64,000 bases of DNA, taken from positions 259,748-323,747 of the forward strand of contig CAVSSR010000002.1 in the NCBI GenBank assembly GCA_963730615.1, in the 5' to 3' direction. Shown here one piece after another: positions 15,679-55,220 of this stretch. Within the stretch, counting starts at the first letter, position 1. Every line of letters begins with the position of its first letter. The notes beneath the pieces are model-generated. The model saw only the letters and a program-made list of their open reading frames with translations. It ran no database searches and was not told where the DNA came from. The translations under genes and the position numbers were made by a program. The stretch is from an uncultured Bacteroidales bacterium. Lineage in GTDB: Bacteria > Bacteroidota > Bacteroidia > Bacteroidales > VadinHA17.

Positions 15679-18054
15679 CTATTTCACTTCCACCACCAGT
15701 TTGGGTATTTTCCCATTAAATTTCGATTTGGCTTCAGCGCCGATTCTCTCTACAACGGGTGTGGCCAGGTCAATTCCCACATCAGCCGTTTCATCAGCCG
15801 AGAAGATGCCTGGTTGAGTGCGTTCAATCCTTCCTTCTCCCACTTTTTTATCATCGATATAAATTGTGCCTAAACCGCCTTTACCAATGCCACCTCCATC
15901 GTAAGCAAAATCGAACTTAACAGTATGTTTGCCAGGTGTCAGTTTTTGATTTGCGGACACGGTGAAGCGCTCCATACCAAGGAAATTATAGTCATATGCT
16001 GCCACTCCGTCTTTTACATAAAGAGCCCATCCGCCAAACCGGCCACCCTGTGCAATAAGAATACCGTTTGCTGTCTTACCTGCAGGTATTTCCACATCAG
16101 CTGCAAGTGTAATAGGCCTGTTTTTAATATTGATGAACACATTTTCAGACATGCCTACCATTCCTTCAGCCAGAGTGAGCGATGAGCGACCACCCATGAT
16201 ATCGGGACGATTTACATTTTCTGCGATAATGCGCTCCATGGTACGGTCATCAATGGGTAATACATGGTTCTTTTCCGCCTCTTTCATGAACAGATCCTGC
16301 AACTCTTTCAGTTTTTCAGGGTTCTGGGCTGACAGATCATTTGCAAGGCTGAAGTCATCAGGAGTATAGTAAAGTTCCCAGATGTCTTCAGTTAACGGCC
16401 TCCTTGGTGTGGGTTCCCATGGTGCCCTGTGGATGGTGCGTGCATACCAGCCCTCGCTGTAAATAGCACGGTTACCGGTTATTTCAAAATATTGTGTTAT
16501 GTGTTTTTCTGCGGCGCTGGCATCATTGAATGAATATACCAGGCTGGTTCCGTCCATTGGTCGCTGTTCAATACCGTTTACGATTTTTGGCTCAGGCAAA
16601 GCGGCAGCTTCCAGGATGGTTGGTGCCACGTCAATCACATGGCTGAACTGGGGACGCAGTCCGCCATTGGCTTTGATGCCTTTGGGCCAGCGGATAGCCA
16701 TGCCCACTTTGGTTCCACCAAAGTCCGAACCGACCTGCTTAGTCCACTGGAAAGGTGTATCGAACATTACTGCCCAGCCGGCAGCCATGTGCGGATAGGT
16801 TTCGGGGCCGCCCCACTTATCATATTTTTTGAGCATGTCCTCGACTGTCTCCTGTACACCGTTGAAATAGGTCATCTCGCTGTACATGCCATTAGCGCCA
16901 CCTTCTGAGCTGGTACCATTATCACCATACACAAAAATTATCATGGTATTGTCTGCCTGTCCGGTTTCCTCAACTGCATCCACCAGGCGGCCAATTTCAT
17001 GATCGGTCATATCCAGAAATCCGGCAAACACCTCAGCCTGACGGGTAAACAGCTTCTTCTGATCAGCGGTTAAGCTATCCCATGCCGGAATGGCCTCGGG
17101 TTTTGGTGCCAGTTTAGTGCCCTGGGGAACAACCCCCATTTCGATCTGACGGGCCAGGATTTGCTCGCGCATAACATCCCAGCCTCCGTCGAATTTACCT
17201 TTCCATTTGTCAATGTACTGCTGAGGCACGTGATGCGGGGCATGTGTTGCGCCCGGGGCAAAGTACATGAAATAAGGCCTGTCGGGCGTTAATGCCTTTT
17301 GATATTTCATCCATGCTATGGCCTGATTGGTCATATCGTTCATGAAATGGTAGTTGGGATCCTCCGGTAATTCAACCACATGTGTTCCATCATACACAAA
17401 TGGCGCCCACTGATTGGTTTCTCCTCCGAAAAATCCATAGAACTTATCAAAACCCTGACGGTGCGGCCAACGGTCCATTGGGCCTGAAACACTGGTTTCC
17501 CAGGTTGCCGTTTCGTGCCATTTGCCGAAGGCTCCGGTGCTGTAGCCGTTCAGGCGAAGCATTTCTGCAACGGGAGTGACATTTTGAGGAATTTCGCCTG
17601 TGTTCCCAGGGAAACCTGTTGCCATTTCGGTAATGAATCCCATGTTATTGACCTGGTGGTTGCGTCCGCTTTTAATTGCCGCCCGGGTTGGAGAGCACAC
17701 AGCAGTGGTGTGGAAATTGTTGTAATAAATACCCTCACTGGCGATGCGGTCAAACGTAGGTGTACTTACCGGCCCGCCAAAGGCGCTGGTTCCGGCAAAA
17801 CCCAGGTCATCCACGAGCACCAGGATTACGTTCGGGGCTCCTTCGGGGGCTTTTACTTCGAACCGCTCCGGCATTACTGCATTGCGTACATCCAGTTCAG
17901 TGAAGGTTGGACGGTCAGGCACTTTGATCGGCAGGACCGTTCGGTCGATGCCGTCACCAGAGGCTGTGACAGCCGGCTGGTCTGCTTTCTTCTGGGTGCA
18001 CCCGAAGAGCAGAAGACCGGAGAACAACAATAAAACAAATGATTTCTTTTTCAT
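15679..18054 (-). CDS. large arylsulfatase (formylglycine type), lipoprotein
   Basis: Lipobox LLLFGC, PNVILVLVDDLGF, signature VCSPTRAAIKSGRN, YGDNGTS block. Intact 791 aa with a C-terminal extension. Confidence 0.9.
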   Translation of the reverse strand: MKKKSFVLLLFSGLLLFGCTQKKADQPAVTASGDGIDRTVLPIKVPDRPTFTELDVRNAVMPERFEVKAPEGAPNVILVLVDDLGFAGTSAFGGPVSTPTFDRIASEGIYYNNFHTTAVCSPTRAAIKSGRNHQVNNMGFITEMATGFPGNTGEIPQNVTPVAEMLRLNGYSTGAFGKWHETATWETSVSGPMDRWPHRQGFDKFYGFFGGETNQWAPFVYDGTHVVELPEDPNYHFMNDMTNQAIAWMKYQKALTPDRPYFMYFAPGATHAPHHVPQQYIDKWKGKFDGGWDVMREQILARQIEMGVVPQGTKLAPKPEAIPAWDSLTADQKKLFTRQAEVFAGFLDMTDHEIGRLVDAVEETGQADNTMIIFVYGDNGTSSEGGANGMYSEMTYFNGVQETVEDMLKKYDKWGGPETYPHMAAGWAVMFDTPFQWTKQVGSDFGGTKVGMAIRWPKGIKANGGLRPQFSHVIDVAPTILEAAALPEPKIVNGIEQRPMDGTSLVYSFNDASAAEKHITQYFEITGNRAIYSEGWYARTIHRAPWEPTPRRPLTEDIWELYYTPDDFSLANDLSAQNPEKLKELQDLFMKEAEKNHVLPIDDRTMERIIAENVNRPDIMGGRSSLTLAEGMVGMSENVFINIKNRPITLAADVEIPAGKTANGILIAQGGRFGGWALYVKDGVAAYDYNFLGMERFTVSANQKLTPGKHTVKFDFAYDGGGIGKGGLGTIYIDDKKVGEGRIERTQPGIFSADETADVGIDLATPVVERIGAEAKSKFNGKIPKLVVEVK

Positions 18055-18210: not shown

Positions 18211-19377
18211 CTAAGCAATCAGATTCAGCACTTTTTTTACCAGTTCAAATAATGGAACTTCGACAAGAACCACAAAGATAAATGGCAAAGCTGTCATAAC
18301 CCATAGCGCTATAAAATCCTTTAATCCGAACGGTACAAATCGCATTTTTAACGTATTATTTATTATGCTGCTGAAGTCAGTAGTAGCTGAATAATCAGGA
18401 ATAGTCAGGTCTTCAGCGGAAACCTTGTCAAAATCCTTTGAGGTCTTCTTCTGAAGCTCTCTGAAAAGGCCATTGGCAAAATCATTGTTTTCAAAAATGG
18501 CCTTATCCCTGGCGTTTATCAGTTTGGAAATAAAAGAAAAAAGGGGCACAGCAAACAGAAGGGTAATAATGACAAAATAAATCAGGAAAGAAATTTTCAA
18601 GTCTGAAACATGAGATCCTCCAATTAGTATTGCATCAATCATTCTTCCGGCCACTGCTGCTGAAATTGCAAAGGCCACGGGTGTAAAATACCGGATGGAA
18701 TAGCCCAGGAAACCCAGCCCTCCGGACAGATCCGGGTGAACTGTGTAAATATTTAAATTGAGTTTTGAAATTTTACGCAGGATTATTGTCCACACAATTA
18801 TGTACATTAACCAGCGATAGAACAGAAAGAGAACAACCGGCCTGCCCACCAGTAAGCTCCACCATCCTGCAAAACTGGGAATAACTTCACCTCCCGTGCT
18901 TAGAGTATTCCAGGTATGGAGCGATAAGTCGGGATTATAAATGAAACCCATAAGCAGGGTGTGTGCATAACAAACAGCAAAAATTGCGAGATCAGTCCAG
19001 CCTGAACTCAGAAACCGGGATTTACGTTGAATGATCTCATCGAAAATGCCCCGCTCCTCGCTTCTTACAATTCCTGATTTAACGAACTGAGCTAATACCA
19101 GGTCCAATTTTGGCAAAATGATTCTCTGGGCGAGTATCAATATTGGCATTGAAATCAAAAGCCGGGTCTGTGTATCGAGGTTTGAAATAAAGGAAGTACT
19201 GACATTGCCTGTCCAGAATGTATGATTAAGAATTGTTATTACCGCCAGGGGCAACCAGCAAACCAAAAGCGGTAAGAGCACCATCAGCAGGGCCGACTTA
19301 CTGCCACTTCCCGTGATGCCGATTCTTTTCAGCATCCTGTTAGAAGCGTAATCTTCAGAATCGAAACTCATATTCAA
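18211..19377 (-). CDS. hypothetical polytopic membrane protein
   Basis: Intact 388-aa ORF with multiple hydrophobic helices. No motif recognised. Confidence 0.45.
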   Translation of the reverse strand: MNMSFDSEDYASNRMLKRIGITGSGSKSALLMVLLPLLVCWLPLAVITILNHTFWTGNVSTSFISNLDTQTRLLISMPILILAQRIILPKLDLVLAQFVKSGIVRSEERGIFDEIIQRKSRFLSSGWTDLAIFAVCYAHTLLMGFIYNPDLSLHTWNTLSTGGEVIPSFAGWWSLLVGRPVVLFLFYRWLMYIIVWTIILRKISKLNLNIYTVHPDLSGGLGFLGYSIRYFTPVAFAISAAVAGRMIDAILIGGSHVSDLKISFLIYFVIITLLFAVPLFSFISKLINARDKAIFENNDFANGLFRELQKKTSKDFDKVSAEDLTIPDYSATTDFSSIINNTLKMRFVPFGLKDFIALWVMTALPFIFVVLVEVPLFELVKKVLNLIA

Positions 19378-20064: not shown

Positions 20065-21124
20065 TTAACGTCTTCTGCCTCCTCCGCCACTTCTGGCACC
20101 GGAGTATGAACCAGAACTACTTCTCGACGAGGATGATGGAGAATATGACCTGGATGCGGACGGTGAACCGTAATTGGATTTGGATGAAGAAGACATATTT
20201 GATGATGATGATCCGGTAGACGGACGGGTTGATGCTGAGGATCCTTTTGACTGACTGGTTGATGGTTTTGCAGCAGAAGAAGAACCCTTTGACTGACTGG
20301 TTGATGGTTTTGCAGCAGAAGAAGCACCCTTCGACTGACCGGTTGACGGTGATGCAGAAGTTCCGGCTGATGGCCGTGTCGATGCAGAAGTGCCTGTTGA
20401 CGGTCGGGCCGAAGCATTATTACGGTTATAGTTACCGCTGGCATTATTATGGTTCACGGTATTGGAACTGTTTCTCGAATTATTGTAATTGTTATAATTA
20501 TTTTCATTATGAATCACTACTGTGTTACCATGAGCCGCCATGATAACCGCCGTGGTGATAGTAATTATTATGATGATAAATACTGACTGCCATTACGGTA
20601 AAAGCTGCATGATAAGGAGGATAATATCCGTAATAATATGGCGGATAATATGGTACGTAAACAGGCGAATAAACATATTGCACTATTGGCGCTGATTCAA
20701 CGACTACAACAGTTGTCGAGGCCGGAGCTGCTGCAGGAACAGGATCCGTTCCGGTATAGGCAGGATTGGGAGTAACAGCAGGAGCTGCAGGTTTGGGTTC
20801 AATAACATAATCTTTACCATACAGATCCTTATCACCGACAATCTGCATCGTAACTTTCCCATCTTTATCCTTTGATACTAAAATCACCGCTACATCCTGT
20901 ATCTCCGTTTTGCTGACGTCAACCTGAAGTATAAATGAAAAATCAGTGTCTTTCTGCTTTGTCACAACCTTTATGAAATCAACAGTATCATTAAGGTCCA
21001 GGTCGAGGTTATTGATCCCTGTTTCCTTTAAGTTCAGGGTTTTTTCAAAATCCTCAATGGTCTTTGACTTTTGAAAAAGATCCAGTACGGCAAAAAGATC
21101 GAGGTTATCACCGGGCAGGCCCAA
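20065..21124 (-). pseudogene. low-complexity Tyr/Pro- and Ser/Asn/Thr-rich protein, at least one frame break
   Basis: ORF 20525-21124 (globular N-part, then YVPYYPPYYYGYYPPY) continues in another frame as ORF 20065-20541 (N/S-rich, 14-aa repeats, C-terminal GGGGRRR). A possible earlier ATG at 21223 lies in a third frame. Confidence 0.45.
20243..20368 (-). repeat. 42-bp in-frame tandem repeat (about 3 units)
   Basis: Units 20243-20284 and 20285-20326 are nearly identical (ccytttgactgactggttgatggttttgcagcagaagaag). The third unit is degenerate. They encode SSAAKPSTSQSKGS repeats. Confidence 0.8.
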
Positions 21125-21319: not shown

Positions 21320-22145
21320 TCATAAGATCTGCATTATCCTTTCACTGACGATCTGCCTGCGTAACAATGCGTCACCCTCGCTTTCGCTATCGAAATGATA
21401 CAGTTTGGCTATTGTGATCCGTTTTGCAAGCAGACTGCAGGCAAGGCTTGCCAGCAGGGCTCCTGCCAGCGGGCCAATCAGATAGATCCACCATCCGTCC
21501 CACTGTCCGGAAATAACTGCCGGACCAAGACTTCGTGCAGGATTGGTGCTGATGCCTGAGATATGCTGCTTCAAGCGGAACCATTATGGCATAGAGAAAA
21601 GGAAACATATACGGGGTAAACTGACGGATTTGCCTGAATCCGATGAATAAAACAAGAAGTGAGACCATGGTAAAGGTTGTGATAACTTCTCCCAGCAATG
21701 CGGTCTGTGTTGAGTAGCCTTCTCCCGGGACAGTAGCACCGAAATCAATGCTTCGGCCCATCTGACCCCAGATCAACAGAGGCAGGCAGCCAATAATTGC
21801 ACCGGTCAGCTGAGCCAATATGTATGTAATGGCAAGGCGTCCTTCGATCTTACGAAACAACCAGAATACCATTGTAACAGCAGGATTGATATGTGCTCCG
21901 CTTACTTTTCCGATGGGGGATAGTGCAATTGATGCACCTACAGATCCAAACAGGAAACCGGTTATCATCTGGCGAATCTTCACATTCGGAATAAGCTGTG
22001 CCATCGGGCTGCCTGATCCAAACATGAAAATGACGATCGACAGACCTACCAGCAATAACAGAGCTGTACCAAAGAATTCAGAAACAAAAAATTTTGAGCG
22101 GTATTTCAGATACCTCGCATTATTCTGTATCTTCACATCATTCAT
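21320..22145 (-). pseudogene. MIP-family channel (aquaporin/glycerol-facilitator like), one frame break
   Basis: First NPA box in SGAHINPAVT (ORF 21387-22145). Second NPA box in ISTNPARSLGPAV (ORF 21320-21574). Break near 21575. Confidence 0.85.
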
Positions 22146-22199
22146 AGGATTGAAAATATTTATAGCTGACTAAGTCATATAGAAGTCTGAAGCCGGATA

Positions 22200-25152
22200 T
22201 TATTGTTTTACAGCTACCGGACGGTCGGCCCTGATTCGTGCGCATGACGGGCATAATTCACGATCCATAAGTGCTGCCATATGATCCGGCAGACGATTTC
22301 TGACGAACTCCCTGTGAGCAGGTGTCTGTGTTGGTGCACCACATTCGCTGCAGGTCAGCAGCGGTTGTTCACGTACTACTGTTCCGGTGATGACCGTGCG
22401 CCGCATCCCATCCTGATCATCGAAGTGAGATCGCACCTGTCGGGCATACCTGTGTACAGGCACCGCAACCGATGCATAGCTCTGCAGGCCTTGTGAAATC
22501 TAAATGAGCAAGCCGGCCGGCCTTGGTGTCGGCCATTCGCAGTGCCTCAACTCCCATTTCACTGCAGGCGGCCATGCACAGGCCACAACCGATACAGATG
22601 TCGCAGCGCAGGCAACGCCGGGCTTCATTTTTCGCCATTGAATCGGTCAGTCCTTCTTCAATCTTGACATAGTTGCCTTCTCCAACGGTTTCCTCAACAG
22701 TTCTCTCAGGCATCATGGTACGGCGCAAATGACTCCGGTCGTCTGCATTTACAGATAAGGGAGTTACATCAGCCCGCTTTACAGGCTTGCCTGTTTCTTT
22801 GTCCATAGATACTCCCTGAAGCCATGCATCAATGGAGGCTGCTGCAATCTTTCCTGACCGGATGGCTTCCACAGCCGTCCGCGGTCCGTGCTGTCCGTCA
22901 CCACCGGCAAAGACACCCGGTACATTTGTCATCTTGGTCTTAGGATCAGCGACTATAAACCCCCGGTTGTTCTCCACAGCGCTGCCTTCAAGAACTGCCA
23001 GGTCAGTGCCCTGACCGACGGCAAGGATAACATGATCAGCTTCGAGAGTAAGAAGACGGTTAGTATCGAATATGCGGATCGAATTTACCGGTCGCATCCT
23101 TTACCCGTTCGCAGTATTGCAGGATGAACCTGCCATCTTCCTCTATGCGTACAGGTCCCCATCCTGCATGTATCTGAACACCCTCCGTCACGGCAAGCTC
23201 TATCTCATGCGGGCTGGCCGGCATATCACGTCGTTTTTCAAGCGAGGTAAGGTCGACATGCCTGGCACCCTGTCTCAGAGCTGTCAGAGCAACGTCGATA
23301 GAGACATTGCCACCGCCAACAACCACAACACGTGGCCCGACACGAACATGTTCACCGCTTCGCACAGCGCGAAGGAAGTCAATACCGCCCATGACAAATG
23401 GCAGTTCGACACCCTCAATTGTAAGAAGACGTGTCCGCTGTGTACCAGGACCAAGAAAGACAGCATCGTAATCCTTACGGAAAGCCTCAAGGTTTGCAAC
23501 CGGTGAGCTGGTGTGTATCCTCACACCCAGTGCACGGATCTGGTCAAGCTCCTTCTCAAGCAGATCGGGAGGATTCCGGTAGGCAGGAATACCATAGCGC
23601 AGCATTCCTCCTGCATATTCCTGAGCTTCAAATACATCTATCTCATGTCCAAGGATTCGCAGATAATATGCAGCTGTGATACCTGCAGGACCGGCACCGA
23701 TGATGCCAATCTTTTTTCCCTGTATCGGGTGCTATGGCGGGTTTCGGATAGCCTCCTTCTGCAAGGCAATGTTCTGCCGCCCTTGCTTTCATCGGCCTGA
23801 TAAAGACAGCACCGTTACCCTGCCTGCGGACACATGCCGATTCGCATGGAGCAGGACATACCAGTCCGCATGTCAGCGGAAATGGATTATCCTGCCTGAT
23901 AGTCTCAATTGTGGAACGATAATCTCCATTACCAAGATGAGCCATGAAAGCTGGGAATATCTATGTTGGCAGGGCAGGTACGATGACATGGTGCAGCATT
24001 CCGCACCAGGCAGAGACCTTCCGGACAGGACTCATTGCGGGCATGACTTTCCCACTGTCCGCGGAAGTACCGAAGTGAGCTGACCAGTGGCCAGGCAGCT
24101 GCAAGTCCCTGCGTGGTAAGCGATACTGCCAATTCATCAAGAGCTGCCAGATGACTTATGCTGCCAACGCCAAGTGTGATCTCTGTTACCAGACGCGCAG
24201 CCCGGGCCAGTAATGCACGAACAGGCGCATCTTCGCCTTCGGAAAGCTGCCAATGGCGATAAAGAGCACGCCGGGTTTGCTTAACGACACATACATCACC
24301 GGTTATCACCATCAGCGTCGATGGTGACGGGATAACACCTGCAGAAAGCAGAGAAAACGGATCCGAAGAAAGATCAGCTTTGGAAAGCGGAAGAAATCCA
24401 CCCAGCCCGTCATCAAATACAAGAACCGGATCTGAACCTGCGATTTCTGTTCCTCCCCCCCATTTATCTACCTGGCTTTTAAGATTAACTGACCTTGAAA
24501 ATTCTACAAGTCCGCGTTCATTCAATCCCTGACGAAGAGTAAGCAACGAGGAATTAAGATCAGTTTTACCTGCAAACAGAAGGGCAATACGGCACCATGT
24601 TTCGGGAGTGTGGACCAGTCGTGTTTTATCTGACGGATGGCCTTCGCTCCAGCAACCCGGCTTGCTGTCACGCAATACCTCAATCTGCCGACCCGGGTTA
24701 GCTATATCAGCCAGAGACCGGATTGCGTCAACAGCATTTAAAAATGCAGCTTCGCGACCGTTCAGCCCGGCCGGCAGCAGCAACTCAATCTTCTGGCTGT
24801 CGCGCAGTCCAATCGCAATCATCAGACCCTCAGCCAGAAGCCAGGGTGCCCTTTCGAGCACTGTTGCCGATCCACGGGAATGAATGTCAGGACAGGTAGC
24901 ATCTATCACCAGTACAGAAGGGCCATACCCGCGAAGGAACTGGCGCCAGGCAAGATGGATTGGTTCGCCGGAAGCGCCGCATTCAGAGATTCCGGATTCC
25001 TGTAATCTCTGCAAACGCTCTAAAGGCGTCATTGAAAGTGCATGGGTAAATGCCGGCAAAGCACCGGCTATTGTATTAGCCGGTGGAACAGCTCCTGAAA
25101 GTGTGGCAGCATCATGGTCAAGCCATGGTGGAAGAATTATGTTGTCGCTCAT
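22200..25152 (-). pseudogene. multidomain oxidoreductase: degenerate NuoF-like domain + GltD-like FAD/NAD(P) domain + 2x[4Fe-4S] ferredoxin domain; at least 5 frame breaks
   Basis: ORFs 23929-25152, 23643-23945, 23060-23605, 22417-23097 and 22200-22463 concatenate. NuoF-like core VLVIDATCPDIHSRGSATVLERAPWLLAEGL. GltD-type Cys region CGLVCPAPCESACVR. Dinucleotide fold IGIIGAGPAGITAAYYL, recovered by dropping one base near 23711. VVVVGGGNVSIDVA. CLRCDICIGCGLCMAACS and CIGCGACTQVCPTGA. Confidence 0.75.
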
Positions 25153-25677
25153 GACTCACTCCTTACGCTCTCCGGAGGCTCTGCAACGATCATGCGGGCA
25201 TATCGCTCACGCCTCGGATCTGGCACTTCGTTAGCTTTTTCGAAGGAGAGGCAACCTGTTACACATTTTGTTACACATGCCGGCTGTAATCCGTCATCGA
25301 GACGGTCTTTACAGTAGTCACATTTAACAACTTTATGTGTTGCAGGGTCCCACTGCGGAGTACCCCATGGACAGGCTGCCATGCAGCTCTTGCATCCTAC
25401 GCAGAGACTTGACTGGACAAAAACGATATTGTCTTTTTCGCGCCTCTGCATGGCCCCGGTCGGGCAGGCTTTTATGCACCATGCATCTTCACAGTGAAAA
25501 CAAGGCATATAAACGAAACGGGTGCGTGGATGCCCTTCAATATTAACCGGGCCTAATATGATTATCTTGCATGGAGCAGGACCTGCTCCGAGATTCTTGT
25601 TTGTCTTGCAGTGTACTTCGCAGGCTTTGCAACCGATACAAGCTGGCATCGTCGTGCTTAAGGGTGTACTTGCTCAT
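25149..25677 (-). pseudogene. 4x[4Fe-4S]-type electron-transfer subunit (PsrB/DmsB-like), one frame break
   Basis: ATG 25677 overlaps the upstream stop (ATGA) and reads MSKYTLKHDDAS. Dropping one base near 25640 continues CIGCKACEVHC...CFHCEDAWCIKACPTGA...CVGCKSCMAACPWG...CDYC. Its own stop overlaps the next ATG (ATGA at 25149-25152). Confidence 0.8.
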
Positions 25678-27879
25678 TTTTTACCTCCTTTCGATGCAAC
25701 AGGTTTAATTTGAATAACAGTCTCGGTCATGGCACATCCTCCACCGGCAGGGTCGAACTCATAGAGTTTGCCATGCTGAAGACGCTGATCGGCTACACCC
25801 AGTCCAAGTGCACGGGTGGCAAGCGGCACCGTGGCACCATAGCCATGAAGCATGAATACTGCCTCAGGATGGATCCATGGAGTTACCAGGGCTTTCATTC
25901 GGCCGGTATAACTGCCACCGCCGTTGATTTCTACCTCATCACCATCTGATATGCCGAGCTTACCGGCACGATCGGGATGGATCCAGAGCACCTGTTTCGG
26001 AGAAATTTCATTCAGTATCGGGTTGTTGAGAGATTGTCCGTGTGCCAGAGTAGCTGTTCTTCCGAATAAAAGGTAGAATTTGTCACCTTCCGGTGCCTCT
26101 TTCGGAATGTACGGTGGAAGTCCGGGCAACCCTGCCTGCTCAAGGATAGAGCTTTCAATCTCTATCTTACCCGATGGGGTCGGAAATTTTAGTTCTTCCC
26201 TGGATATTAACTTCGGTGAATCTGACAGAGTTACAAAACCTTCCTCACGCATTTCGGCAACAGTCACTCCTGTGCCATCGAGCTGATAGTTCCATAGTTC
26301 CTCAATGGTCTGGAAGTCGAGAACATCCTTAATACCCATCCGGTGCAGAATCTCCCTGAAGATCCACCATGCCGGGCGGCTGTCGAAGCGGGGAGCGATA
26401 GCCTGATCGCGCATGGCGAAAACAGGTACAGGACCATTCATCTGGGCCAGGATATTAGCACGCTCGAGGTATGTCGATTCGGGAAGGATGACATCTGAAA
26501 ACCAGCCTGTTTCTGAATAGCGTACGTCAATGGAAACCAGAAGTTTAAGCTTGTCCAGAGCACGTTTTGTAGCCTCAGGATCGGGCAGTCCGGTGAGAGG
26601 GTCGTGGCGATAAGCGAAATAGGCACCAATGCCATATGGCTGTGCCGTCTCCATAGCTGCAAATGCCTGGTGCAGCATACCTATCTTGGGATCCCATTGC
26701 GGCCTGGTTGTACCTGCACCATCTACACGGGGATCTGCTGGTTTTGGTGCACGTGAAGAAAGCTGGTTAAGACTTTTGCGGCCATAATCTTCAGGTGATT
26801 TGCCAAGTAATACATCCCTCCGGGAACTTCTATGTTGCCCATAAGGGCATTCAGTATCAGAGCAGTACGGCTGACGTAAAATGATTGTTTATGACGGGCA
26901 GTCATCCAGCCCGGATGGAATATCACCTGTGGTGCATCTGTTGCAATCTCGCTTACAAATTCACGAATCTCTGCGGCAGGAATACCTGTGTGACTCTCCT
27001 GCCATTCCGGCGTAGTATCCTTTACCATCTCATGCAGATAGTCCATTCCGGAAACATAACGTGTTACAAACTCCTTGTCGTACGCTTCCTGCTTCAGTAC
27101 CTCATGTATTATGGCAAGGTTGAGGGCATAGTCGCTGTTCGGACGTACCTGCCAGTATCGTGTTGCCTTGCAGGCAGTTATGCTGGCGCGCGGATCGATA
27201 TAGGTGCATTTCATACCTCAGCCAGCGCTGCCATGAAGGCCTTAGACTCTTTTACCATAAGAGATTCGACGATATTCCGGCCATAAAGCACAAGGTGTTT
27301 CGTATTTTTAAAGTCGAAAACTAACCCGGAGTGACCGATACCAAAGACAGAGAGTGCAGGCGTTGTGAATGTTACCTGCGCAACCGGCATCATGGTTAAA
27401 GTAGTTGGGAGATCCCAGCGCATGTACAAAGGTTCGTGGTAAGGTCGTTAAAGAAGCCGCCACGATCGGATAGCATGATGCCTCGTCCTCCAAAGGTTTC
27501 TGTGGTCTCCTGCAGCTTGTCAGCAATATAATCAAGGGCTTCGTCCCAGGATGCACGCCGCCATTTACCACCACCGCGAGGACCTGTACGGATGAGAGGT
27601 GTCTGAGGCCGCTCATCGTCAAACTCAAATGCCAAGACCTGCGGAACCCTTTGCACAAAGGCTTGTTCCGATGGCCTTGTCGTGATGATTTCCCTGAAGC
27701 CAGACTATCTTCCCGTCTTCGACTGTTACTTCTATCGGGCAACGCACGGCACACATACCGCACATGCTGTAAACCGTTCGCCTTCCAGGGGTCCCCACTC
27801 CTGAAACGTTTGGTGCCATTACTGAATTCATTAATGCTCCTTTCAACTGTTTTTTACACCTCAGAGAACTGAATGACAA
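25674..27879 (-). pseudogene. molybdopterin (bis-MGD) oxidoreductase catalytic subunit, Psr/Phs-like, cytoplasmic; at least 5 frame breaks
   Basis: N-terminal FS0 motif SMCGMCAVRCPIEV with no twin-arginine signal. Candidate Mo ligand in NYFNHDAGCAGNIHNA. C-terminal MopB/molydop-binding region (WIHPDRAGKLGISDGDEVEI) in intact ORF 25674-26678. Fragments 26723-27214, 27211-27429, 27396-27656, 27625-27879. The likely true start is ATG 27831. Confidence 0.8.
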
Positions 27880-28910
27880 CCTTTATATCATCAGGTTGTC
27901 TTTCGAGTGCCTTCATGAAATTTTCAGGTTTTTCCCGTCGGGTAATAAGTTTTGCCAGCCAGTTGCGGTCGGCTTTGGCCAGGGTTAGTCCGGCCCTGTA
28001 CCATTGACGCTTATTTGCATTTACACTTCCTACGATCACATTATTCCTCAATACAGCAGCAGCAGCCATATCGGCCAGTACACCGGCTGCCAATTGCTCC
28101 TCCCTGTCCGACCCCTGTGAGACATAATGATCCCGCTTGACCCTATTTTCTTGAATACAATCTGCGATTACCGGTCCGACACCGGTACATTCAACTATGG
28201 CATCCGGTTCGAAATCCAGATCAGCAACACTTGCCGGAATGATAGATAGCACCAAGTTCCCGTACAAGGTCAGGTTTGGACCCTGATTCCATCCTGTCGA
28301 GTACATGTACTTCTTCAATCCCCCATATTTTCAGGCTCAGGGCAGCCAGAAGTCCTATCGGTCCTGCTCCTGTAACCAGAACAGTATGAGGTTCCCAGAA
28401 CGACCGGCGGCCAATCATTCCTATCTGTTCCAGAGCCTTGGTAACAACAGTGGTAGGTTCAAGAAGAACACCCAGAATACCAAGTGTAGGATCAACTTTT
28501 ACAGCATATTCAGGTTCTATTCTCCACCGCTCCGACATATATCCGTGTATCTCCTTGATACCACGTTCGGTATAAAGGCCGTTACGGCACATATCCCATT
28601 CACCTACTGCACAGTTCGGGCAGGGAACAGGATCGGGACGTCTGACGATGCCAACTACAAGATCGCCTTTTTTAAATCCGGTTGATGTACCCGGATCAAT
28701 CACGCGACCCAGTGATTCGTGACCCAGGATAAGATGCTTTTGCCCGGGAGGGGCCCAGCCATATTTCCCTTCCACAATTTCAACATCGGTACCGCATACT
28801 CCTACGGCAATGGCTTCAACAAGTATTGATCCATCACGCATATCAGGTTCCGGCATATCCATATATCTTGCGGTTCCGGCTTTTTTTGGTTCAACTGTAA
28901 TTGCTTTCAT
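27854..28910 (-). pseudogene. Zn-dependent MDR dehydrogenase resembling archaeal-type glucose 1-dehydrogenase, one frame break
   Basis: [12 protein letters not shown]...GVCGTDVEIVEGKYG...LILGHESLGRV...VLVTGAGPIGLLAA aligns by eye with Thermoplasma/Sulfolobus glucose dehydrogenase as I recall it. The C-terminal half lies in ORF 27854-28318. The start overlaps the upstream stop (ATGA at 28907-28910). Confidence 0.7.
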
Positions 28911-31720
28911 ATTGGCTTATCTGTGTTATTTGTTTCGTGTTTTTCTTCAGCCTGAACCGGCTTCGGGGTTTTCCTGAACGCCTTTGCCTTGCTGAATTTA
29001 AGAGCTGTCTTTCGGCCGACATTTGCTGCAAACAATTGCATCGTCCGTGCAATTGTACCTGTCCAGCCGGTCTGGTGGCTTGCACCAATACCTGCACCGG
29101 TATCTCCATGGAAATATTCATGGAACAGTATGTAATCACTCCAGTAGCGGATCCTCCTGAAATTTCTGAATATTCCCATACACCGGCCTGTGACCTGATT
29201 TATCGCGCAGGAAAATGGCGGAAAGCCGGCTGGATATTTCTTCGGCAACCTGGTAGAGATTCATCATATTTCCGGAACCTGTCGGACATTCGATCAGGAA
29301 ATCATTTCCATAATACTGGTAATAATTAAAAAGCGCCCTGACGATGATCATATTGACCGGCATCCATATCGGACCGCGCCAGTTGGAATTTCCTCCGAAC
29401 ATTCCATTATCGGAATCGCCCGGTAAATAGGAGACAGTAAATTCATTATCACCAACACTGAATTTTGTAAGGATGTTCTCCATGTATCCTTGAGAGAGCC
29501 CTGATACCATACGGACTCAAAAATTCTTTCTCGTCCAGCATCACTGTCAGAACCCTTCGCAAATTTGTCTCATTCAGAACCGATGCCAGGAACCTGCCAT
29601 TCTGACCGGGTTTGCCAGGATTATGGATAAAGGCAGTTAATTCAGGTTTGGTTGACAGGAAGTTTGATGATCTGCTGTACCAACTTCAGGATATTTTTCC
29701 CTCATTTCCCTGTTATAAACAGTGACTGCACATAAAGGAAGCAAGTCCTACCATCGACCGTGACTTTCAGCCTTTGGTTACCTCCATCGGGCAGACAAAG
29801 CACATCATAAAAAAATCCGTCATGTCTCATCCCACATCCCTCCGTCTTCATCAGCACGTATCATGGATGATGAGATCCACAAAAAGTGTTCAAACAATTT
29901 CATGGAGATATCGACATAAGCCGGATTGACCAATGCCAGCTGTATGCTTATTTCCATCATGTTCTGGCAAAAAAGAGCCATCCATGCCGTACCGTCAGCC
30001 TGTTCGAGGTATCCTCCGGTAGGCAGGGCAGAACTCCGGTCGAACACTCCAATATTATCCAGTCCGAGAAAACCACCCTCAAAAGCATTATTTCCTGCCC
30101 TGTCCTTCCTGTTAACCCACCAGCTGAAATTCAGCATCAGTTTATGGAAAGAACGTTCAAGCCACTCGATATCACCTTTGCCGTTGGTTGCCTTTTCAAG
30201 GAAAAAAGTGAATATTGTTGACCATGCATGCACAGGAGGGTTTACATCGCCAAAATTCCATTCGTAAGCAGGTATCTGACCGTTGGGATGCTGATAGTCC
30301 GTACGCAGCATCAGTTCCAGCTGTCCCTTTCCGAAATCCTCATCAACAAGTGTAAGCGCAGATAACATGAAATGCCAGGTCCCATGCAGCATACCATGGA
30401 TATTCCCATTTGTCGGGCATGGAGATAATGTCTGAGTTGTTCATATGATGCCAGCGATCGTTACGGATGTCCCGCTGCCTTGATTTGGACGGATTAACAC
30501 CATGCTCCTTAAGCCATTTGCCGACATCATAGTTGAAAAACTGTTTTGACCACAACATCCCTGCCAGCGCCTGCCGCATAACATTTGCTTCATCAGCGCC
30601 CAGAGAAGAGGGAATAACTGTGGCATAAAACTCATCAGCTTCCTTAAGTCGCGATTTGAATATGTTATCAAAGCCGGCACCGAAGTGCAGTTTGTCTCCT
30701 TCTTATCTGTTTTTTTATCTGCCACAGCCATTTTTGTAAGACGCAGATTCAGTGTTTTGGATTTACCTCCCTTTAATATTCAGAATATACTGAGCAGCGG
30801 CTTTTGTCCCGGTTTTCTCAGGATTTACAGCATTTTTTTGTCCCATGACGATATAATTATTGATACCGTCTTTTACATAAGGGATTATGTTAGGAACACC
30901 AGCAAGCCTGTTGATATTTGTTTCATTATTTGTAAAAAGCAGGTCATTTGCTCCGTTTGCGCTGAACAGCCATTTTCCCATATCTTTTTGCGAGGCTTCT
31001 ATCACACCTGATTTCTTATTGAGAGTGACCTGTTTCAGTACCGGGATCTCTTCATCCGCCACTATCATGCCATGTATTGCGGAACCAGAGTGTTGGCAGA
31101 ACATGTCAAGGAGGCAGTCTTCAGCTCCGCGGTTAAAAACAGTGATGCGGATCAGAATGTCTTCCGGTGAGTCCTTGGCATATTCCACAAATACATCAAA
31201 ATAGCGGTTGTCATTAAAGATGCCTGTATCCAGTAACTCATATTCAGGCTCATTCCGGCTTCGACGGCGGTTAGTGCTGACAATATCATCATAAGGATAG
31301 GCCCTATGAGGGTACTTATACAGGTACTTCATGTAGGAGTGGGTAGGAGTGGAGTCGAGATAGAAATAGTACTCTTTCACATCCTCACCGTGGTTACCCT
31401 CGCTGTTGCTTAAACCGAACAGCCTCTCCTTAATGATGGGATCATTGTCCGTTCCATAAGGCCAGTGCAAAGCAGAGCAGCTGTTTATCATCGGAAATAC
31501 CTGCCAGTCCGTCTTCGCCCCATCGGTATGCACGCGAACGGGCCTGGTCATGCGTAAAATAATTCCAGGCATCACCGTTTTCGCTGTAGTCCTCACGGAC
31601 AGTTCCCCACTGACGTTCACTTAGATAAGGTCCCCATTTTTTCCAGGGGATATTATTTTGCCTGGCCTCTTCCAGTCTTGCTTTTTCAACACAAATATCA
31701 CCCTGCGCTTGCTTTTTCAT
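28907..31720 (-). pseudogene. GH63-like (MGH1-like) glucosidase / mannosylglycerate-hydrolase family protein; at least 7 frame breaks
   Basis: N-terminus [54 protein letters not shown] and NSEGNHGEDVKEYYFYLDSTPTHSYMKYLYKYP are typical of the cytoplasmic GH63-like family (recalled). Catalytic (alpha/alpha)6 part is in fragments 29820-30392, 29136-29510 and 28907-29248. Confidence 0.7.
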
Positions 31721-32078
31721 TTTTTTCCATATTTTTCTTTATCAGTTCCGGCAGTTCATGAAGTTCTTTGCTCAGAAAATAATTCAGGAATGTTCTTATT
31801 ATTGCAACCGCTCCAAGCTGAATAAGATTTTCATAAGTCGGGGCAACCGTTGTTTTCACAATGTCAGCAGCAAGCTGAAACTCAAGTGCCAGTACCAGCC
31901 ATCCGCCAAACAATAGCCGTAACCTGTTGTACATTGGAGAATAGTGTTCCTGCCTTCTTTTAAGCAAAAGAATAAATGCTTTGACAAAGCCTACCGCAAT
32001 ACATAAAACGGCGGTGAATTCCAGGGCCAGTGCTACTACCTTGACGAATTCTTCCAATATTAATTCTGCTGTTTCCAT
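31698..32078 (-). CDS. DUF1622-like small membrane protein
   Basis: 126 aa. [15 protein letters not shown] ... [20 protein letters not shown] pattern recalled from DUF1622. Overlaps the GH63-like start by 23 nt. Confidence 0.5.
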
Positions 32079-32090
32079 AAATTCCTGAGT

Positions 32091-32995
32091 TTATTTTTTG
32101 TTCTGCTTCTGATTTATTTTATGCTGTTGCAGCTTCCTTTCCGGCCTTCTGCCCATAATAGGTGCAATAATGTAGCTGAGGATAAAAGACCACAGAGTCC
32201 AGATGACAACCATCGCCACCATATTTGGTTTTACATTCGGAATTGTAAGAACTCCTATCAGAACAGCAGCTATATTCCGTGTACCCATTCCCAGTGACAT
32301 GACAACTTTCTCACCGCGGTTAAGGCCGAAACCGGCATAAAAAGAGATCAGTGCCATTACAAAACAGAAAATTGTAAGTGAAAGCATTGCCATGCTGCCG
32401 GCAGTAGCCCACATCTGCTTGTAATAAAGCAATAAAGCAGAAGATAATTGTCAATAATGTAGACAAACCCGCCAGCTTCTTTACCGGATTGAAGATCTTA
32501 TCGGCCACATTGCTGGCAAATGTCTTGATCAAAGCGCCAATAAGCAAAGGTAACAGCACTGATAATAAAGAGCGGTTTCAGGAGCGACATTACGCTTAAT
32601 TCTATCCCCTTGACCAGGAGTGGTGCGAAAATCGGCATTAACAGGGATGTGCCGATCGCTGCCACCGGGATGAAGGCTCCGGCGAAGACAACGTCTCCAT
32701 TCGCTTTGGGGAGAAGCGGCGGGAGAAAGGGTGCACAGGGAGCCAGACTTCCGATGAACAATACTATTACGTACATATTATCCAGGGGAAGTAACAAGTG
32801 TAATCAGAAATGCTATAGCAGGGCCTACCACCCAGCCTAATCCAAAGATCAGACCCAAGGAACTTCGGATTTCCAACTATTTTGAACATCTTGCCCAGGT
32901 TCACCTGAAGCCCCATGCTAAAGAGGTTCGAAATGGTGAAGACCAGTACCAGTGGCTGGAATATTGACTGACAAAACTGTAATAATTTCGTTCAT
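32091..32995 (-). pseudogene. SBF-like (bile acid:Na+ symporter family) transporter; about 4 frame breaks
   Basis: ATG 32995 gives MNEIITVLS. Hydrophobic segments QSIFQPLVLVFTISNLFSMGLQVNLGKMFKIVGNPKF, LPPLLPKANGDVVFAGAFIPVAAIG and GLNRGEKVVMSLGMGTRNIAAVLIGV are spread over frames (ORFs 32498-32797, 32320-32559, 32091-32432). Confidence 0.55.
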
Positions 32996-32997
32996 AG

Positions 32998-34706
32998 TTA
33001 TATGTTTATAAAGTTAATACACTGCATAATAGAACGTGCCAGCATACTTCCGGAGATATTCACTGCCCTGAAGCCGTTCTGCAGCAGTATTCGTGTTGCA
33101 TAATATGACCGCTGTGCCGAGCGGCAGAATGATGCTATCTGCTTGTCCTTCGGCAGTTCAGCCAGGCGTGAGCGCAACTGGGGAAGAGGTATATTGACAG
33201 CACCCGGAACAGGATCAGCTGCCACTTCAGGCGGATTACGCACGTCTAAAAGAAAGCTGTCGCCCAGTGAGTCCCAATGAACAACCGGCATGTCGCCCCT
33301 GAGGATATTTGCAGCGATCATACCGGCAAAGTTGACCGGATCTTTTGCACTTCCGTAATGGCGGAGCATAGCAGAGTTCAGATTCTTCAAGATCATAAAT
33401 TGTACATCCCATCTGAATTGCCATGGCAAAAGAATCGATCCTCTTTGGTAACTCCGTCTTCGCCAAGAACCTGTGCACCAAGCACTTTTCCGTCTGACTT
33501 GCGGAAGATAACCTTTATAACAAGCATTTTTGCACCCGGGTAATATCCGGCATGTGAATTAGGGAAAAGGTATACTTTCTCGTAATCAGTATCACCAAGT
33601 TTTTTAAGAGTTTTCTCGCTGACACCTGTCTGTGCTATTGCAGCGTCGAACAGCTTGCATATTGATGTTCCCTGTGTTCCGCGGAACTTCGATTTACGTC
33701 CTGCTATCACATCGGCTGCAATACGTCCCTGTCTGTTTGCCGGTCCTGCCAGCGGTATCAGAGTCCACTCTCCTGTAACAAAATCCTTCACTTCAACTGC
33801 ATCACCAACTGCCAAGAATATCGGGATCGGATGTGACCATATGTTCATTTACCCTTATGCCTCCACGTTCTCCGATCTCTAATTCCGGCCATCTTTGCCA
33901 GTTCAAGTCTCGGGTTTTACTCCAATAGCCATAATGACAATGTCAGCCTTATAAACCTTCCCTTTTTCGGTAAGCACTTCCAGATCCACCATTTTCACCC
34001 TTACGGAATCCTGCCACGCCATCACCGGTTTTAACGGTTATTCCATGTTTCTTCAGATATCTCTTAACGACGCGTGCCATTTCCGGATCGAGCGGAGGCA
34101 TAACCTGGTCGAGTTTCTCAATCAATGTGACATTAAGGGCTCTTTCAACTAAGGTTTTCAGCCATTTCCAGGCCAATGAATCCTCCGCCTATGACCACTG
34201 CCTTCTTTGGTTTTGAAATCTTGTCAACACCTGTGAATGAATTTCCAACGGAATTGTCGGTATCCCTGTCAAGCCACTCTTTGATATTTTTTGAATCTGC
34301 AACTGTTCTTACTGAAAATATTCCCGGAAGATCGAGTCCGGGAAGGGGAGGACGAATAGGTGCTGCACCGGGAGAAAGTACCAGTTTGTCGTATTTTTCA
34401 GTTGTGACTTCACCGGTGAGATGATTTTTCAGCTTAACCGTCTTCTCCTTCGCTGAGATACCAACCACCTCACAATTTGTCCGGCAGTCGATGTTGAATA
34501 TCACCTTGAACATCTGTTCCGTGGCAACGAGAAGTTTTGATTCTTCGTCTATCGATCCCGCCTACATAGTACGGTAAACCGCAGTTTGCATAGGATACGA
34601 ATGGTCCGCGTTCCACCATCAGGATCTCGACTTTTTCATCAAGCCTGCGGAGTCGTGCAGCACATGATGCGCCACCTGCAACTCCACCAACGATAATTAC
34701 TTTCAT
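32998..34706 (-). pseudogene. CoA-disulfide reductase / NAD(P)H sulfur oxidoreductase with C-terminal rhodanese domain; at least 5 frame breaks
   Basis: MKVIIVGGVAGGASCAARLRRL and redox Cys in SYANCGLPYYVGG. Second dinucleotide fold KKAVVIGGGFIGLEMAENL. Rhodanese loop FCRSAQRSYYATRILLQNGF. Fragments 34470-34706, 34145-34513, 33949-34176, 33393-33848, 32998-33429. Confidence 0.8.
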
Positions 34707-34881
34707 AGTTTTTGCTTTTAATTTGTTCTTGCTTATTTGAAATGAAATTTAAGGCTAGTTTTAATGGGGGACAATACTTAACAATCAGTATTTATCTTAA
34801 CCAGCTCAGCCCCTCATCCGGTATATACCTGGTCAAATTGTTCTGTCCCGGCGTGCATCGCAATAAGGGAACGCATTACAT

Positions 34882-34916
34882 TCAGTTTAGTGTTTCGCGT
34901 TTGTCGTTCGTCGTCG
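34882..34916 (-). repeat. five degenerate heptamer repeats abutting the stop codon
   Basis: Plus strand reads tcagttt agtgttt cgcgttt gtcgttc gtcgtcg, immediately followed by the stop (tca, 34917-34919) of the OMP gene. Confidence 0.5.
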
Positions 34917-35705
34917 TCAGAAGTTAAACCCAAATCTTACGACCGGGCCAAATGAAGCCATATTAAAGACAAACCGTTCTGTATCAACTCCCTTGTCATA
35001 ATTAACACTTAGATATCTGTATCCTGCCGTCAGCTGGAATACTTTGCCGAACCGGTAACCGGCGTAAGCCTGAAGTTGCCAGGTTAAGTCCGATCCTATA
35101 CCGAAACCGCCAATATCGCCCCTGAATTGAAAAAGCCACTTGTCATTAATATCAGCAGTGATTCGGGTAATCAAAATGGGGTCAAACCATGTTTTTGATC
35201 CGCTCGCTGTTACAGCTTCTGTTCCGAAAGGAAATACATTCCGGCGAACATCAATATCTGTTGAAAGACTGGTCAGTCTGCCGCCAATGCCAATTTCCAG
35301 GAATGGCACAATTCTGTAAAATCCGGCAGGTTCCCAGATAAATTCTTTTGCTGTTACTTCGCCGGAATGTAATAAAGTACCCGGAGTTACCTCCTGGTTC
35401 AGGCTCATGTAAACCAGGTCGGAAGTTATTGCCCATTTATCGGTTTTAGCCTCAAAGTATAGCATAGCTGCCATCTTCAGTTTGCTGAAGATATCGCCGG
35501 GATTGGCATCTACAGGTACCGTAATCACATTACCTATGCCTGTTTCTCCATCCATATAGGGAAACATCAGGTAGACATCGGTAAGGAAGTTCCATTTTTT
35601 CACCCTGGCGGTATCCTGGGCAAAGGCGGGGTTATTACCCCAACTGCACATCAGTGAAAAAAACAATACCGGAGCAATAAAAGAACGGCCTTTAATAAGT
35701 CCCAT
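34917..35705 (-). CDS. outer-membrane beta-barrel protein
   Basis: Signal peptide ending NPAFAQ, beta-strand periodicity, C-terminal VVRFGFNF. Confidence 0.55.
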   Translation of the reverse strand: MGLIKGRSFIAPVLFFSLMCSWGNNPAFAQDTARVKKWNFLTDVYLMFPYMDGETGIGNVITVPVDANPGDIFSKLKMAAMLYFEAKTDKWAITSDLVYMSLNQEVTPGTLLHSGEVTAKEFIWEPAGFYRIVPFLEIGIGGRLTSLSTDIDVRRNVFPFGTEAVTASGSKTWFDPILITRITADINDKWLFQFRGDIGGFGIGSDLTWQLQAYAGYRFGKVFQLTAGYRYLSVNYDKGVDTERFVFNMASFGPVVRFGFNF

Positions 35706-42302: not shown

Positions 42303-42340
42303 GATCTAGTCCTTTGGGTAAATCAAATTGTTTGTACCTT

Positions 42341-43298: not shown

Positions 43299-43311
43299 GA
43301 TTCTTCCCTCC

Positions 43312-55185: not shown

Positions 55186-55220
55186 GGCTTCAGGCTTTAA
55201 GACTTCAGACTCTGGACTTC
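55186..55220. repeat. five heptamer repeats straddling the GH13 stop codon (contains 25-nt element copy 2)
   Basis: ggcttca ggcttta agacttc agactct ggacttc. The stop codon tta lies at 55197-55199, so the last units encode the C-terminal FEVQSLKS. Confidence 0.5.

Follow-up and report, generated by a model that had tools for sequence, protein, structure and literature searches.

We analysed a 64,000-nt stretch of DNA from an uncultured Bacteroidales bacterium (contig CAVSSR010000002.1; hereafter the window, to which coordinates without a locus label refer) and focused on a block of nine minus-strand genes at 21320-34706 that places a glycoside hydrolase and a glucose-dehydrogenase-like protein next to a molybdoenzyme. 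This operon is genuine and widely conserved. Taken as a whole, the explanation that we favor, and regard as probable, is that the operon encodes a soluble, NAD(P)H-coupled, Psr/Phs-like molybdenum enzyme together with sugar oxidation, and that the numerous frame breaks seen in its genes are artefactual.

From its 5' end, the block contains CoADR-rhodanese, an SBF-type transporter, DUF1622, GH63, a glucose-dehydrogenase-like MDR (GDH), the MopB catalytic subunit, an iron-sulfur (FeS) subunit, a large flavoprotein fusion and a MIP-family channel (Table 1). This order and the family labels, proposed in an earlier reading of the DNA (the original prediction), agree with the Pfam families and with homology, the SBF label resting on the latter. 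The three ATGA stop/start overlaps described there, at 28907-28910 (GH63/GDH), 25674-25677 (MopB/FeS) and 25149-25152 (FeS/fusion), can be read in the sequence, and the remaining gaps are as short as claimed (CoADR-SBF 0-2 nt, SBF-DUF1622 40 nt, GDH-MopB 22 nt, fusion-MIP 54 nt). Among the homologous loci fetched for comparison, which are labeled L001, L002 and so on, L001 is located on a 1.1-Mb contig from the metagenome-assembled genome (MAG) of an uncultured Bacteroidales bacterium and has the identical gene order and identical ATGA overlaps, with every gene intact except MopB. In the window, the open reading frame (ORF) map of the block is a mosaic of 60-400-aa ORFs with rotating frames, while the genes outside the block are long and unbroken. 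Of the translationally coupled block that had been proposed, the order, strand and overlaps therefore stand, but the ORFs are not intact and the coupling exists only after ~43 repairs; a repair had been mentioned for MopB only, and nearly every gene proves to be frameshifted.

Table 1 Features of the operon, from its 5' end, with the frame-breaking events in each gene
Position	Strand	Feature	Basis	Single-base insertions	Other frame events
34707..34916	-	Intergenic gap, 210 nt, non-coding, 5' of the first gene; likely promoter region			
32998..34706	-	CoADR-rhodanese (Npsr-type)	Pfam Pyr_redox_2, Pyr_redox_dim, Rhodanese	8	0
32119..32995	-	SBF (bile-acid/Na+ symporter family) transporter	Homology; homologues 290 aa, 87-89% identity	5	1 (two-base)
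31698..32078	-	DUF1622 small membrane protein, 126 aa	PF07784, E 1.9e-27; exact protein on independent contigs		
28907..31720	-	GH63 / MGH1-like glycoside hydrolase, ~905 aa intact	Weak Pfam matches on fragments; homology to L001	13	1
27854..28910	-	Zn-dependent MDR, archaeal-type glucose 1-dehydrogenase-like (GDH)	Pfam ADH_N, Glu_dehyd_C	4	0
25674..27831	-	MopB catalytic subunit, Psr/Phs-like	Pfam; frame-aware alignment to L015 and L005	3	2
25149..25677	-	FeS subunit, four-cluster [4Fe-4S], PsrB/DmsB-like, 175 aa	Pfam Fer4_11, E 1.9e-22	1	0
22200..25152	-	Fusion, 982 aa: degenerate NuoF-like, GltD-like and 2x[4Fe-4S] ferredoxin parts with Cys-rich tail	Pfam	4	0
21320..22145	-	MIP-family channel (aquaporin/aquaglyceroporin)	Pfam MIP, E 1.5e-22	1	0

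A scan of one genome per GTDB species found at least 591 loci, 80 of which were returned for comparison (79 non-redundant). The genes for MopB, the FeS subunit and the fusion are contiguous in 79 of the 79 loci, which come from ~10 phylum-level groups, and the fusion gene comes immediately after the FeS gene in every fetched locus whose contig is long enough. Within 10 kb of this core we found a GDH-like MDR in 47/79 loci, GH63 in 35/79, a lactonase in 37/79 and at least one of the three in 54/79, and these sugar genes span ~8 phylum-level groups. The coupling to GH63 and a sugar dehydrogenase, a combination not recognized in the original prediction, is thus conserved, and the situation named in the original prediction as speaking against it, an adjacency present in no relative, does not arise. 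Over ~717 aa, the repaired MopB has 75-81% identity to its orthologues from eight phylum-level groups (L010, L030, L033, L036, L039, L040, L047 and L052; Actinomycetota, Chloroflexia, Acidobacteriota, Planctomycetota and Proteobacteria). Since the guanine-plus-cytosine content of the MopB gene is 61-70% in those orthologues and 51% in the window, this identity indicates very strong constraint. Cultured carriers include Roseomonas nitratireducens, Sulfurisoma sediminicola and Allochromatium warmingii. No description of the operon emerged from full-text searches of the literature for this set of genes.

MopB shows the features of the superfamily that carries a molybdenum or tungsten bis-pyranopterin guanine dinucleotide cofactor (Mo/W-bisPGD; MopB / DMSO reductase). 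The Pfam domains Molybdop_Fe4S4, Molybdopterin and Molydop_binding occur in this order on the pieces 27625-27879, 27396-27656, 26723-27214 and 25674-26678, the motif for the FS0 cluster is present and conserved in 60 loci (YSMCGMCAVRC...LCAKG), and the orthologue has a cysteine aligned with the Mo-ligand Cys173 of PsrA, where the window reads HDAGCAGN. When the intact Roseomonas orthologue was compared with the PDB, the best match was PsrA of T. thermophilus (2VPW, E 2.5e-108), followed at a distance by acetylene hydratase (1e-49), ArrA (1e-37) and formate dehydrogenases (~1e-33); a grouping with formate dehydrogenase, which had been named as a result that would speak against the prediction, is not what we found. 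PhsA (NF012032) was the top NCBIfam model for the same protein. The N-terminus MNSxMAPNVSGVGxPGRRTVYSMCGMC is conserved in 60 loci, and none of the 60 recovered N-termini carries a twin-arginine translocation (Tat) signal: only ~22 residues precede the CxxCxxxC...C cluster and a hydrophobic h-region is missing, so there is no room for such a signal. A scan of the block ORFs with Pfam gave no match to an NrfD/PsrC-type membrane anchor. The cluster, the missing signal and the missing anchor had all been noted correctly. The FeS subunit has ATGA overlaps at both ends of its gene and four Cys clusters, is 149/175 identical to L001 after repair, and its orthologue has DmsB as the best NCBIfam model, below cutoff.

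The MopB homologues in databases are all truncated. We considered selenocysteine (TGA) as the cause and rejected it, since in isolates and short-read MAGs the gene is an uninterrupted ORF of 717-728 aa that has Cys; the truncations are frame changes. Upstream of the MopB start codon (ATG 27831), a Shine-Dalgarno-like AAGGAG lies at a distance of 7 nt within 27832-27850 on the minus strand. Shine-Dalgarno-led initiation is mostly missing in Bacteroidota, which makes this motif unusual.

The flavoprotein fusion contains the Pfam domains Fer4_20, Pyr_redox_2 and Fer4 (4Fe-4S dicluster). Its residues 387-858 match the GltD-like N-terminus of StnA/NfnA (8OH5, 9N5U, 9BOV) with E-values of 1e-80 to 1e-97, and the arrangement of a two-cluster Fer4_20 domain ahead of Rossmann folds for FAD and NAD(P)H, along with PDB matches to StnA, NfnA, DPD and GltD, places this part with the GltD / NfnB / SudA type; the NCBIfam model PRK12771 scored 494-498 bits, just below its cutoff of 516. 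Residues 196-382 match HydB/HoxF/NuoF structures at ~1e-13 to 1e-16. In this module, however, the FMN/NADH motif RGRGGAGFP reads SECGASGEP and the N3-cluster motif ESCGKCxPCR...SLCGLG reads LSEGEDAPVR...SLTTQG, the N3 cysteines and RGRGGAGFP are lost in all 14 family members aligned (window part 23929-25152), and no PF01512 match was found in the fusion. Membership of the NuoF / HydB / HoxF family is thus not indicated, and the NuoF-like module is probably a degenerate relic rather than a second nucleotide site. The NAD(P)H coupling therefore rests on the GltD-like module. The proposal of a cytoplasmic enzyme linked to NAD(P)H through this module was largely right; of the fusion that had been described, the GltD-like NAD(P)H/FAD module is present and the NuoF-like part is degenerate. 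In Allochromatium warmingii, the first half of the NuoF-like module is missing altogether.

The repaired GDH is 318/350 identical to that of L001, whose closest PDB relatives are the Haloferax (2B5W, E 5e-47) and Sulfolobus (2CD9, E 7e-38) enzymes; its domains and nearest relatives identify it as an MDR of the archaeal glucose 1-dehydrogenase type, an activity predicted from sequence. The lactonases near the core belong to two unrelated families, PF10282 in Chloroflexota and Bacteroidota and PF08450 (SGL) in Actinomycetota, Gammaproteobacteria and Deltaproteobacteria, and the recruitment of both is an argument for a sugar lactone as the actual product of the MDR. For GH63, the fragments in the window gave sub-threshold Pfam matches, while a precomputed PF22422 match exists for the intact orthologues of L001 and L002; after repair, the window protein has 719/905 residues in common with its intact L001 counterpart, and a sequence search of the PDB gave no relative.

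According to our model, the core would be a soluble cytoplasmic three-protein molybdoenzyme, composed of MopB with a Cys-ligated Mo/W-bisPGD and FS0, the FeS subunit and the large flavoprotein. GH63 would hydrolyze a glucoside, and an aldose (glucose) 1-dehydrogenase and a lactonase would take the sugar to the aldonate. The NAD(P)H from this oxidation would be re-oxidized by the GltD-like module, and the electrons would travel through the FeS chain to the Mo site and reduce a small acceptor. We infer both the direction of electron flow and the acceptor. The family resemblance and the recurrent anion-transporter neighbors suggest that the acceptor may be a sulfur (oxy)anion, such as thiosulfate or polysulfide: SBF-type carriers lie near the core in 13 loci, including Alphaproteobacteria, Holophagales and Rubrivivax, SulP is near the core in Bacteroidales, and a TauE/SafE-family (sulfite/sulfonate exporter) gene, split into ~420-aa and ~131-aa parts, stands directly upstream of MopB in six betaproteobacterial loci without sugar genes (L065, L066, L067, L068, L073 and L078).

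Several observations weigh against this model. Most beta- and alphaproteobacterial loci have no sugar genes around the core, and the carriers without them include sulfur oxidizers, in which the enzyme might run oxidatively. The Roseomonas MopB misses the PhsA equivalog cutoff (492 vs 694 bits, NF012032), and the orthologue has Arg and Trp opposite His145 and Arg332 of PsrA (phmmer alignment, read by eye), so its active site may differ from that of polysulfide reductase. Moreover, NAD(P)H at ~-320 mV is a poor donor for thiosulfate at ~-400 mV. The role of the molybdoenzyme might be other than the reduction of a sulfur compound at the expense of NAD(P)H from sugars; it could work oxidatively and make NAD(P)H, for example by forming thiosulfate from sulfide and sulfite or by using another donor, or it could have a non-sulfur substrate, for instance selenite, arsenate, an S- or N-oxide, or a compound undergoing organic hydroxylation or dehydroxylation. 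The points just listed fit this alternative, as do the occurrence of the enzyme without sugar genes in the sulfur oxidizers Allochromatium warmingii and Sulfurisoma sediminicola and in Rhodocyclaceae, and the general property of MIP channels to pass metalloid hydroxides as well. On the other hand, PsrA and PhsA outscore all other matches by a wide margin, an NAD(P)+-dependent aldose dehydrogenase and a lactonase beside the core in at least four phyla fit a supply of reductant, and the TauE/SafE, SulP and SBF neighbors are anion carriers often tied to sulfur oxyanions. We consider an oxidative or non-sulfur role possible but unlikely; it competes with the functional part of our explanation only, and its likelihood is not to be added to that of the explanation as a whole.

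To locate the frame breaks, a frameshift-aware dynamic programme aligned the L001 proteins to the window; for MopB, the intact L015 and L005 proteins were used. In the 13.4 kb, ~43 frame-breaking events fall in eight genes, 39 of them insertions of a single base and the other 4 shifts of -1 or +2, and DUF1622 is the sole unbroken ORF of the nine. The insertions are near 34556, 34150, 33981, 33905, 33874, 33813, 33446 and 33355 in the CoADR gene, which is split into 6 frames; near 32980, 32856, 32795, 32560 and 32433 in SBF, with a two-base excess near 32150 and a frame walk of 2>0>1>2>0>1>0; near 28226, 28147, 28125 and 28085 in GDH; at 27633, 27434 and 27355 in MopB, with further frame events at 27218 and 26808-26814; near 25638 in the FeS gene; at 23952, 23717, 23071 and 22419 in the fusion; and near 21560 in MIP. 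Most insertion sites are outside homopolymers. The density of events is ~3.2 per kb in the block vs ~0.2 per kb in the rest of the window, where it is about typical of the data set, and the flanking genes 34917-35705, 18211-19377 and 15679-18054 are unbroken. The breaks are confined to the operon, and the edges of the broken region coincide with the operon boundaries. The repaired frames contain 0 in-frame stops in 3532 codons and are 79-93% identical to the L001 proteins, and the ratio of nonsynonymous to synonymous substitution rates (dN/dS) is 0.086 across these codons vs 0.167 for the intact neighbor 18211-19377.

We are confident that these breaks are consensus errors of a Nanopore-only metagenome assembly and not pseudogenes, because of the absence of stops, the bias toward insertions, the low dN/dS, the way in which the breaks track the sequencing technology and the intact ORFs on independent contigs. 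The relatives nearest to the window locus are 'MFD...bin' MAGs, which come from the Microflora Danica long-read project. Flye built these assemblies from Nanopore data alone, and they were polished in a single Medaka round without short reads (PMC12313526); indel errors are known for such assemblies (PMC12313526, PMC9262707). Frame changes in the operon occur in 33/58 Nanopore-only Microflora Danica loci vs 1/22 other loci, the latter being isolates, short-read MAGs and short-read-polished MAGs (Fisher p = 1e-5). The Microflora Danica loci have 0.22 frame changes per kb in the operon, and 86/113 changes are of the +1 type. Among four close relatives, 35 of the 41 events sit at positions differing from those in the window, which indicates that the breaks are private to each assembly and not inherited. 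Contigs of the Logan collection (runs ERR15459711 and ERR12037366) encode exactly the 262-aa protein of the window (34917-35705) and exactly its 126-aa DUF1622. On the contig with the identical 262-aa protein, the CoADR ORF is open for at least 139 aa, while the window ORF stops at 78 aa; on that with the identical DUF1622, SBF is a single 289-aa ORF that ends 40 nt before DUF1622, which is exactly the length left when 7 bases are taken from the 877 nt in the window (stop at 32119-32121).

Two other origins of the breaks were weighed. If the operon were truly decaying, one inactivating hit would have left all nine genes unselected and gathering frameshifts, which would agree with breaks limited to one functional unit whose edges are the operon edges; that the operon can be lost is seen in the relative L002, where IS66 disrupts MopB. 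Bacterial pseudogenes show a deletion bias, and decay with many indels should leave nonsense substitutions, deletions and a relaxed dN/dS. The block has none of these marks of a pseudogene cluster: there is no nonsense codon among the 3532 repaired codons, the dN/dS is below that of the intact neighbor, and 39 insertions stand against at most 4 other events. The identical error type also follows the sequencing technology across the 80 loci, and the independent contigs with identical flanking proteins have an intact SBF and an open CoADR. Decay is thus improbable. Still less credible, and in our view negligible, is a reading in which the extra bases exist in the DNA and serve to regulate the operon, either because ribosomes pass them by programmed +1 frameshifting or because RNA editing removes them. 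The changes are indeed nearly all of the +1 type and CTT is present at some sites, but no motif is common to the 35 site contexts, for which reason programmed frameshifting was rejected, ~43 serial sites would abolish the yield at any known frameshifting efficiency, the sites are not kept among close relatives, and isolates and short-read assemblies have plain ORFs.

The case for assembly error is nevertheless indirect, and some results count against it. An exact look-up of nine repaired SBF variants found none on record, and a search with the repaired SBF gave no homologue above 89% identity; the Logan support therefore rests on ORF lengths and spacing, not on sequence. Insertions are ~15-fold denser in the operon than in the rest of the window, for which we have no explanation; low local depth, as in an accessory island, and cross-mapped reads from co-occurring carriers are candidate causes. 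Two specific error mechanisms were examined and neither was supported. Retention of both alleles at a wobble position was compatible with 27/35 sites (77%) vs 72% of 4000 simulated random insertions (p = 0.32). A chimeric consensus built from the sampled relatives would require a mosaic pattern that we did not find, as L003 is nearest almost throughout at 79-94% identity.

Relatives of the window show further interruptions. At L001:9866-10013, three single-base insertions packed into 150 bp divide MopB into parts of 195, 55 and 484 aa, a further local cluster of the error type found in the window. In contrast to such one-base changes, the gene is truly disrupted on a related Bacteroidales contig, where an IS66-family transposase sits within MopB at L002:8204-9874. 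In L002, the FeS subunit and the flavoprotein also appear as one 1163-aa fusion; we set this aside as Rosetta-stone evidence, since one indel at the ATGA overlap of a Nanopore-only contig suffices to produce it.

The upstream part of the block is less uniform among relatives. The repaired CoADR-rhodanese is free of stops, agrees with L001 at 528/565 residues and has the redox Cys in SYANCGLPYY and the rhodanese Cys in FCRSAQRS, and the L001 orthologue matches 3ICR (E 1e-160), 3NTA (E 1e-153) and also 8A56, while the TIGR03385 score is below cutoff (461 vs 579 bits). It stands beside the enzyme in 5/7 Bacteroidales loci and in one actinobacterial locus (1/72 others). The identity of the protein, which had been taken to point to sulfur chemistry, holds, but its adjacency is nearly confined to Bacteroidales and is weak evidence for such chemistry. 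DUF1622 was seen in the window only, and relatives such as L001 have a SulP transporter at its position. The nine genes might accordingly not form one system: CoADR-rhodanese, SBF and DUF1622 could be a separate lineage-specific module abutting the sugar and molybdoenzyme genes. The restricted distribution of CoADR and the replacement of DUF1622 by SulP speak for such a module; the tight same-strand spacing of CoADR-SBF and SBF-DUF1622 and the recurrence of SBF-type carriers beside the core in other groups speak against it. We regard this as a serious possibility, somewhat short of an even chance. At the other end of the block, the repaired MIP is 221/267 identical to L001, and MIP adjoins the cluster in 14/79 loci. 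The 210-nt spacing upstream of the first gene (34707-34916) is identical on Logan contigs. Scans of this gap for sigma-70 promoters and terminators gave sites not above shuffles, sigma-70 being the wrong model for Bacteroidota.

Elsewhere in the window, a sulfatase paralogue at 145-1862 (-) has two +1-type frame changes (frames -3, -1, -2), errors of the type seen in the operon. At 44573-47008 (-), the gene for a PFL-like glycyl-radical enzyme lies in three frames (46790-47008, 46450-46869 and 44573-46453) with two +1 changes; over 2.4 kb it has 80.6% DNA identity to a Chloroflexia MAG locus (L025:14987-17378) that is likewise fragmented. Overlapping same-strand ORF pairs at 20065-21124 (-), 42314-43391 (+) and 55197-56736 (-) resemble single frame changes. 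Just downstream of the operon, the ORF 20525-21124 (-) encodes a Tyr/Pro/Gly/His-rich low-complexity tail (...YYPPYYYGYYPPYH...HHGGYHGG); it has no Pfam match, and an exact look-up did not find it on record.

If our explanation holds, the novelty lies in a MopB enzyme of the Psr/Phs type whose electron partner has become a soluble NAD(P)H flavoprotein and which is linked to the oxidation of aldoses. A large Psr/Phs-like family (at least 591 loci in GTDB species genomes) would then be soluble and NAD(P)H-linked instead of respiratory, and would be partnered with sugar oxidation in Actinomycetota, Chloroflexota, Acidobacteriota, Bacteroidota, Planctomycetota and Proteobacteria; the automatic label 'thiosulfate/polysulfide reductase chain A' would mislead sulfur-cycle inventories. 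We tentatively propose, as a possible but doubtful extension, that soil and sediment bacteria use a small sulfur (oxy)anion to take up the electrons from NAD(P)+-dependent oxidation of aldoses. Such a reduction of thiosulfate or polysulfide, driven by sugar and independent of quinones, would be a novel electron sink of fermentation as well as a novel way of producing sulfide in the cytoplasm. For genome scans, the window serves as a warning that a conserved operon in a Nanopore-only MAG may hold more than 40 private insertion errors beside clean-looking neighbors, and that such an error-dense region mimics a pseudogene island or a recoding system.

As in other Nanopore-only assemblies with indels, the breaks of the window are private, non-inherited and track the sequencing technology, but they differ in being mostly non-homopolymer single-base insertions that are ~15x denser in one operon. 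The CoADR-rhodanese shares its two-domain architecture and strong matches with Shewanella Npsr (3NTA) and B. anthracis CoADR-RHD (3ICR); its TIGR03385 score is sub-cutoff, and its adjacency to a molybdoenzyme is essentially a Bacteroidales trait. An archaeal-type glucose 1-dehydrogenase and a gluconolactonase together form the entry to the non-phosphorylative Entner-Doudoroff pathway. The GDH of the operon resembles the Haloferax and Sulfolobus enzymes of this pair in its ADH_N and Glu_dehyd_C domains, in having them as its closest PDB relatives and in the lactonase adjacent in 37/79 loci. In contrast to them, it is bacterial and lies beside a molybdoenzyme instead of Entner-Doudoroff genes, and its sugar specificity is predicted only.

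The closest parallels of the core are PsrABC/PhsABC (Thermus thermophilus PsrA 2VPW, Salmonella PhsA), which have in common with it a MopB with FS0 and a Cys Mo-ligand and a four-cluster FeS partner, and which give the best sequence matches. Unlike these, the window system has neither a Tat signal nor an NrfD anchor, its partner is a soluble NAD(P)H flavoprotein and not quinol, its PhsA score is sub-cutoff, and His145 and Arg332 are not kept. With the Sporomusa-type Nfn complexes (StnABC 8OH5; NfnABC 9N5U; 9BOV), the core shares the GltD-like FeS/FAD/NADPH module and the presence of a MopB-type protein in the complex, and the NuoF/HoxF-like module matches StnB/NfnB at E 1e-10 to 1e-13. In contrast to StnABC/NfnABC, the NuoF-like and GltD-like parts are here joined in one chain from which the N3 cysteines and the FMN/NADH motif have been lost, no NuoE-like gene was seen, and MopB is a separate, apparently catalytic protein.

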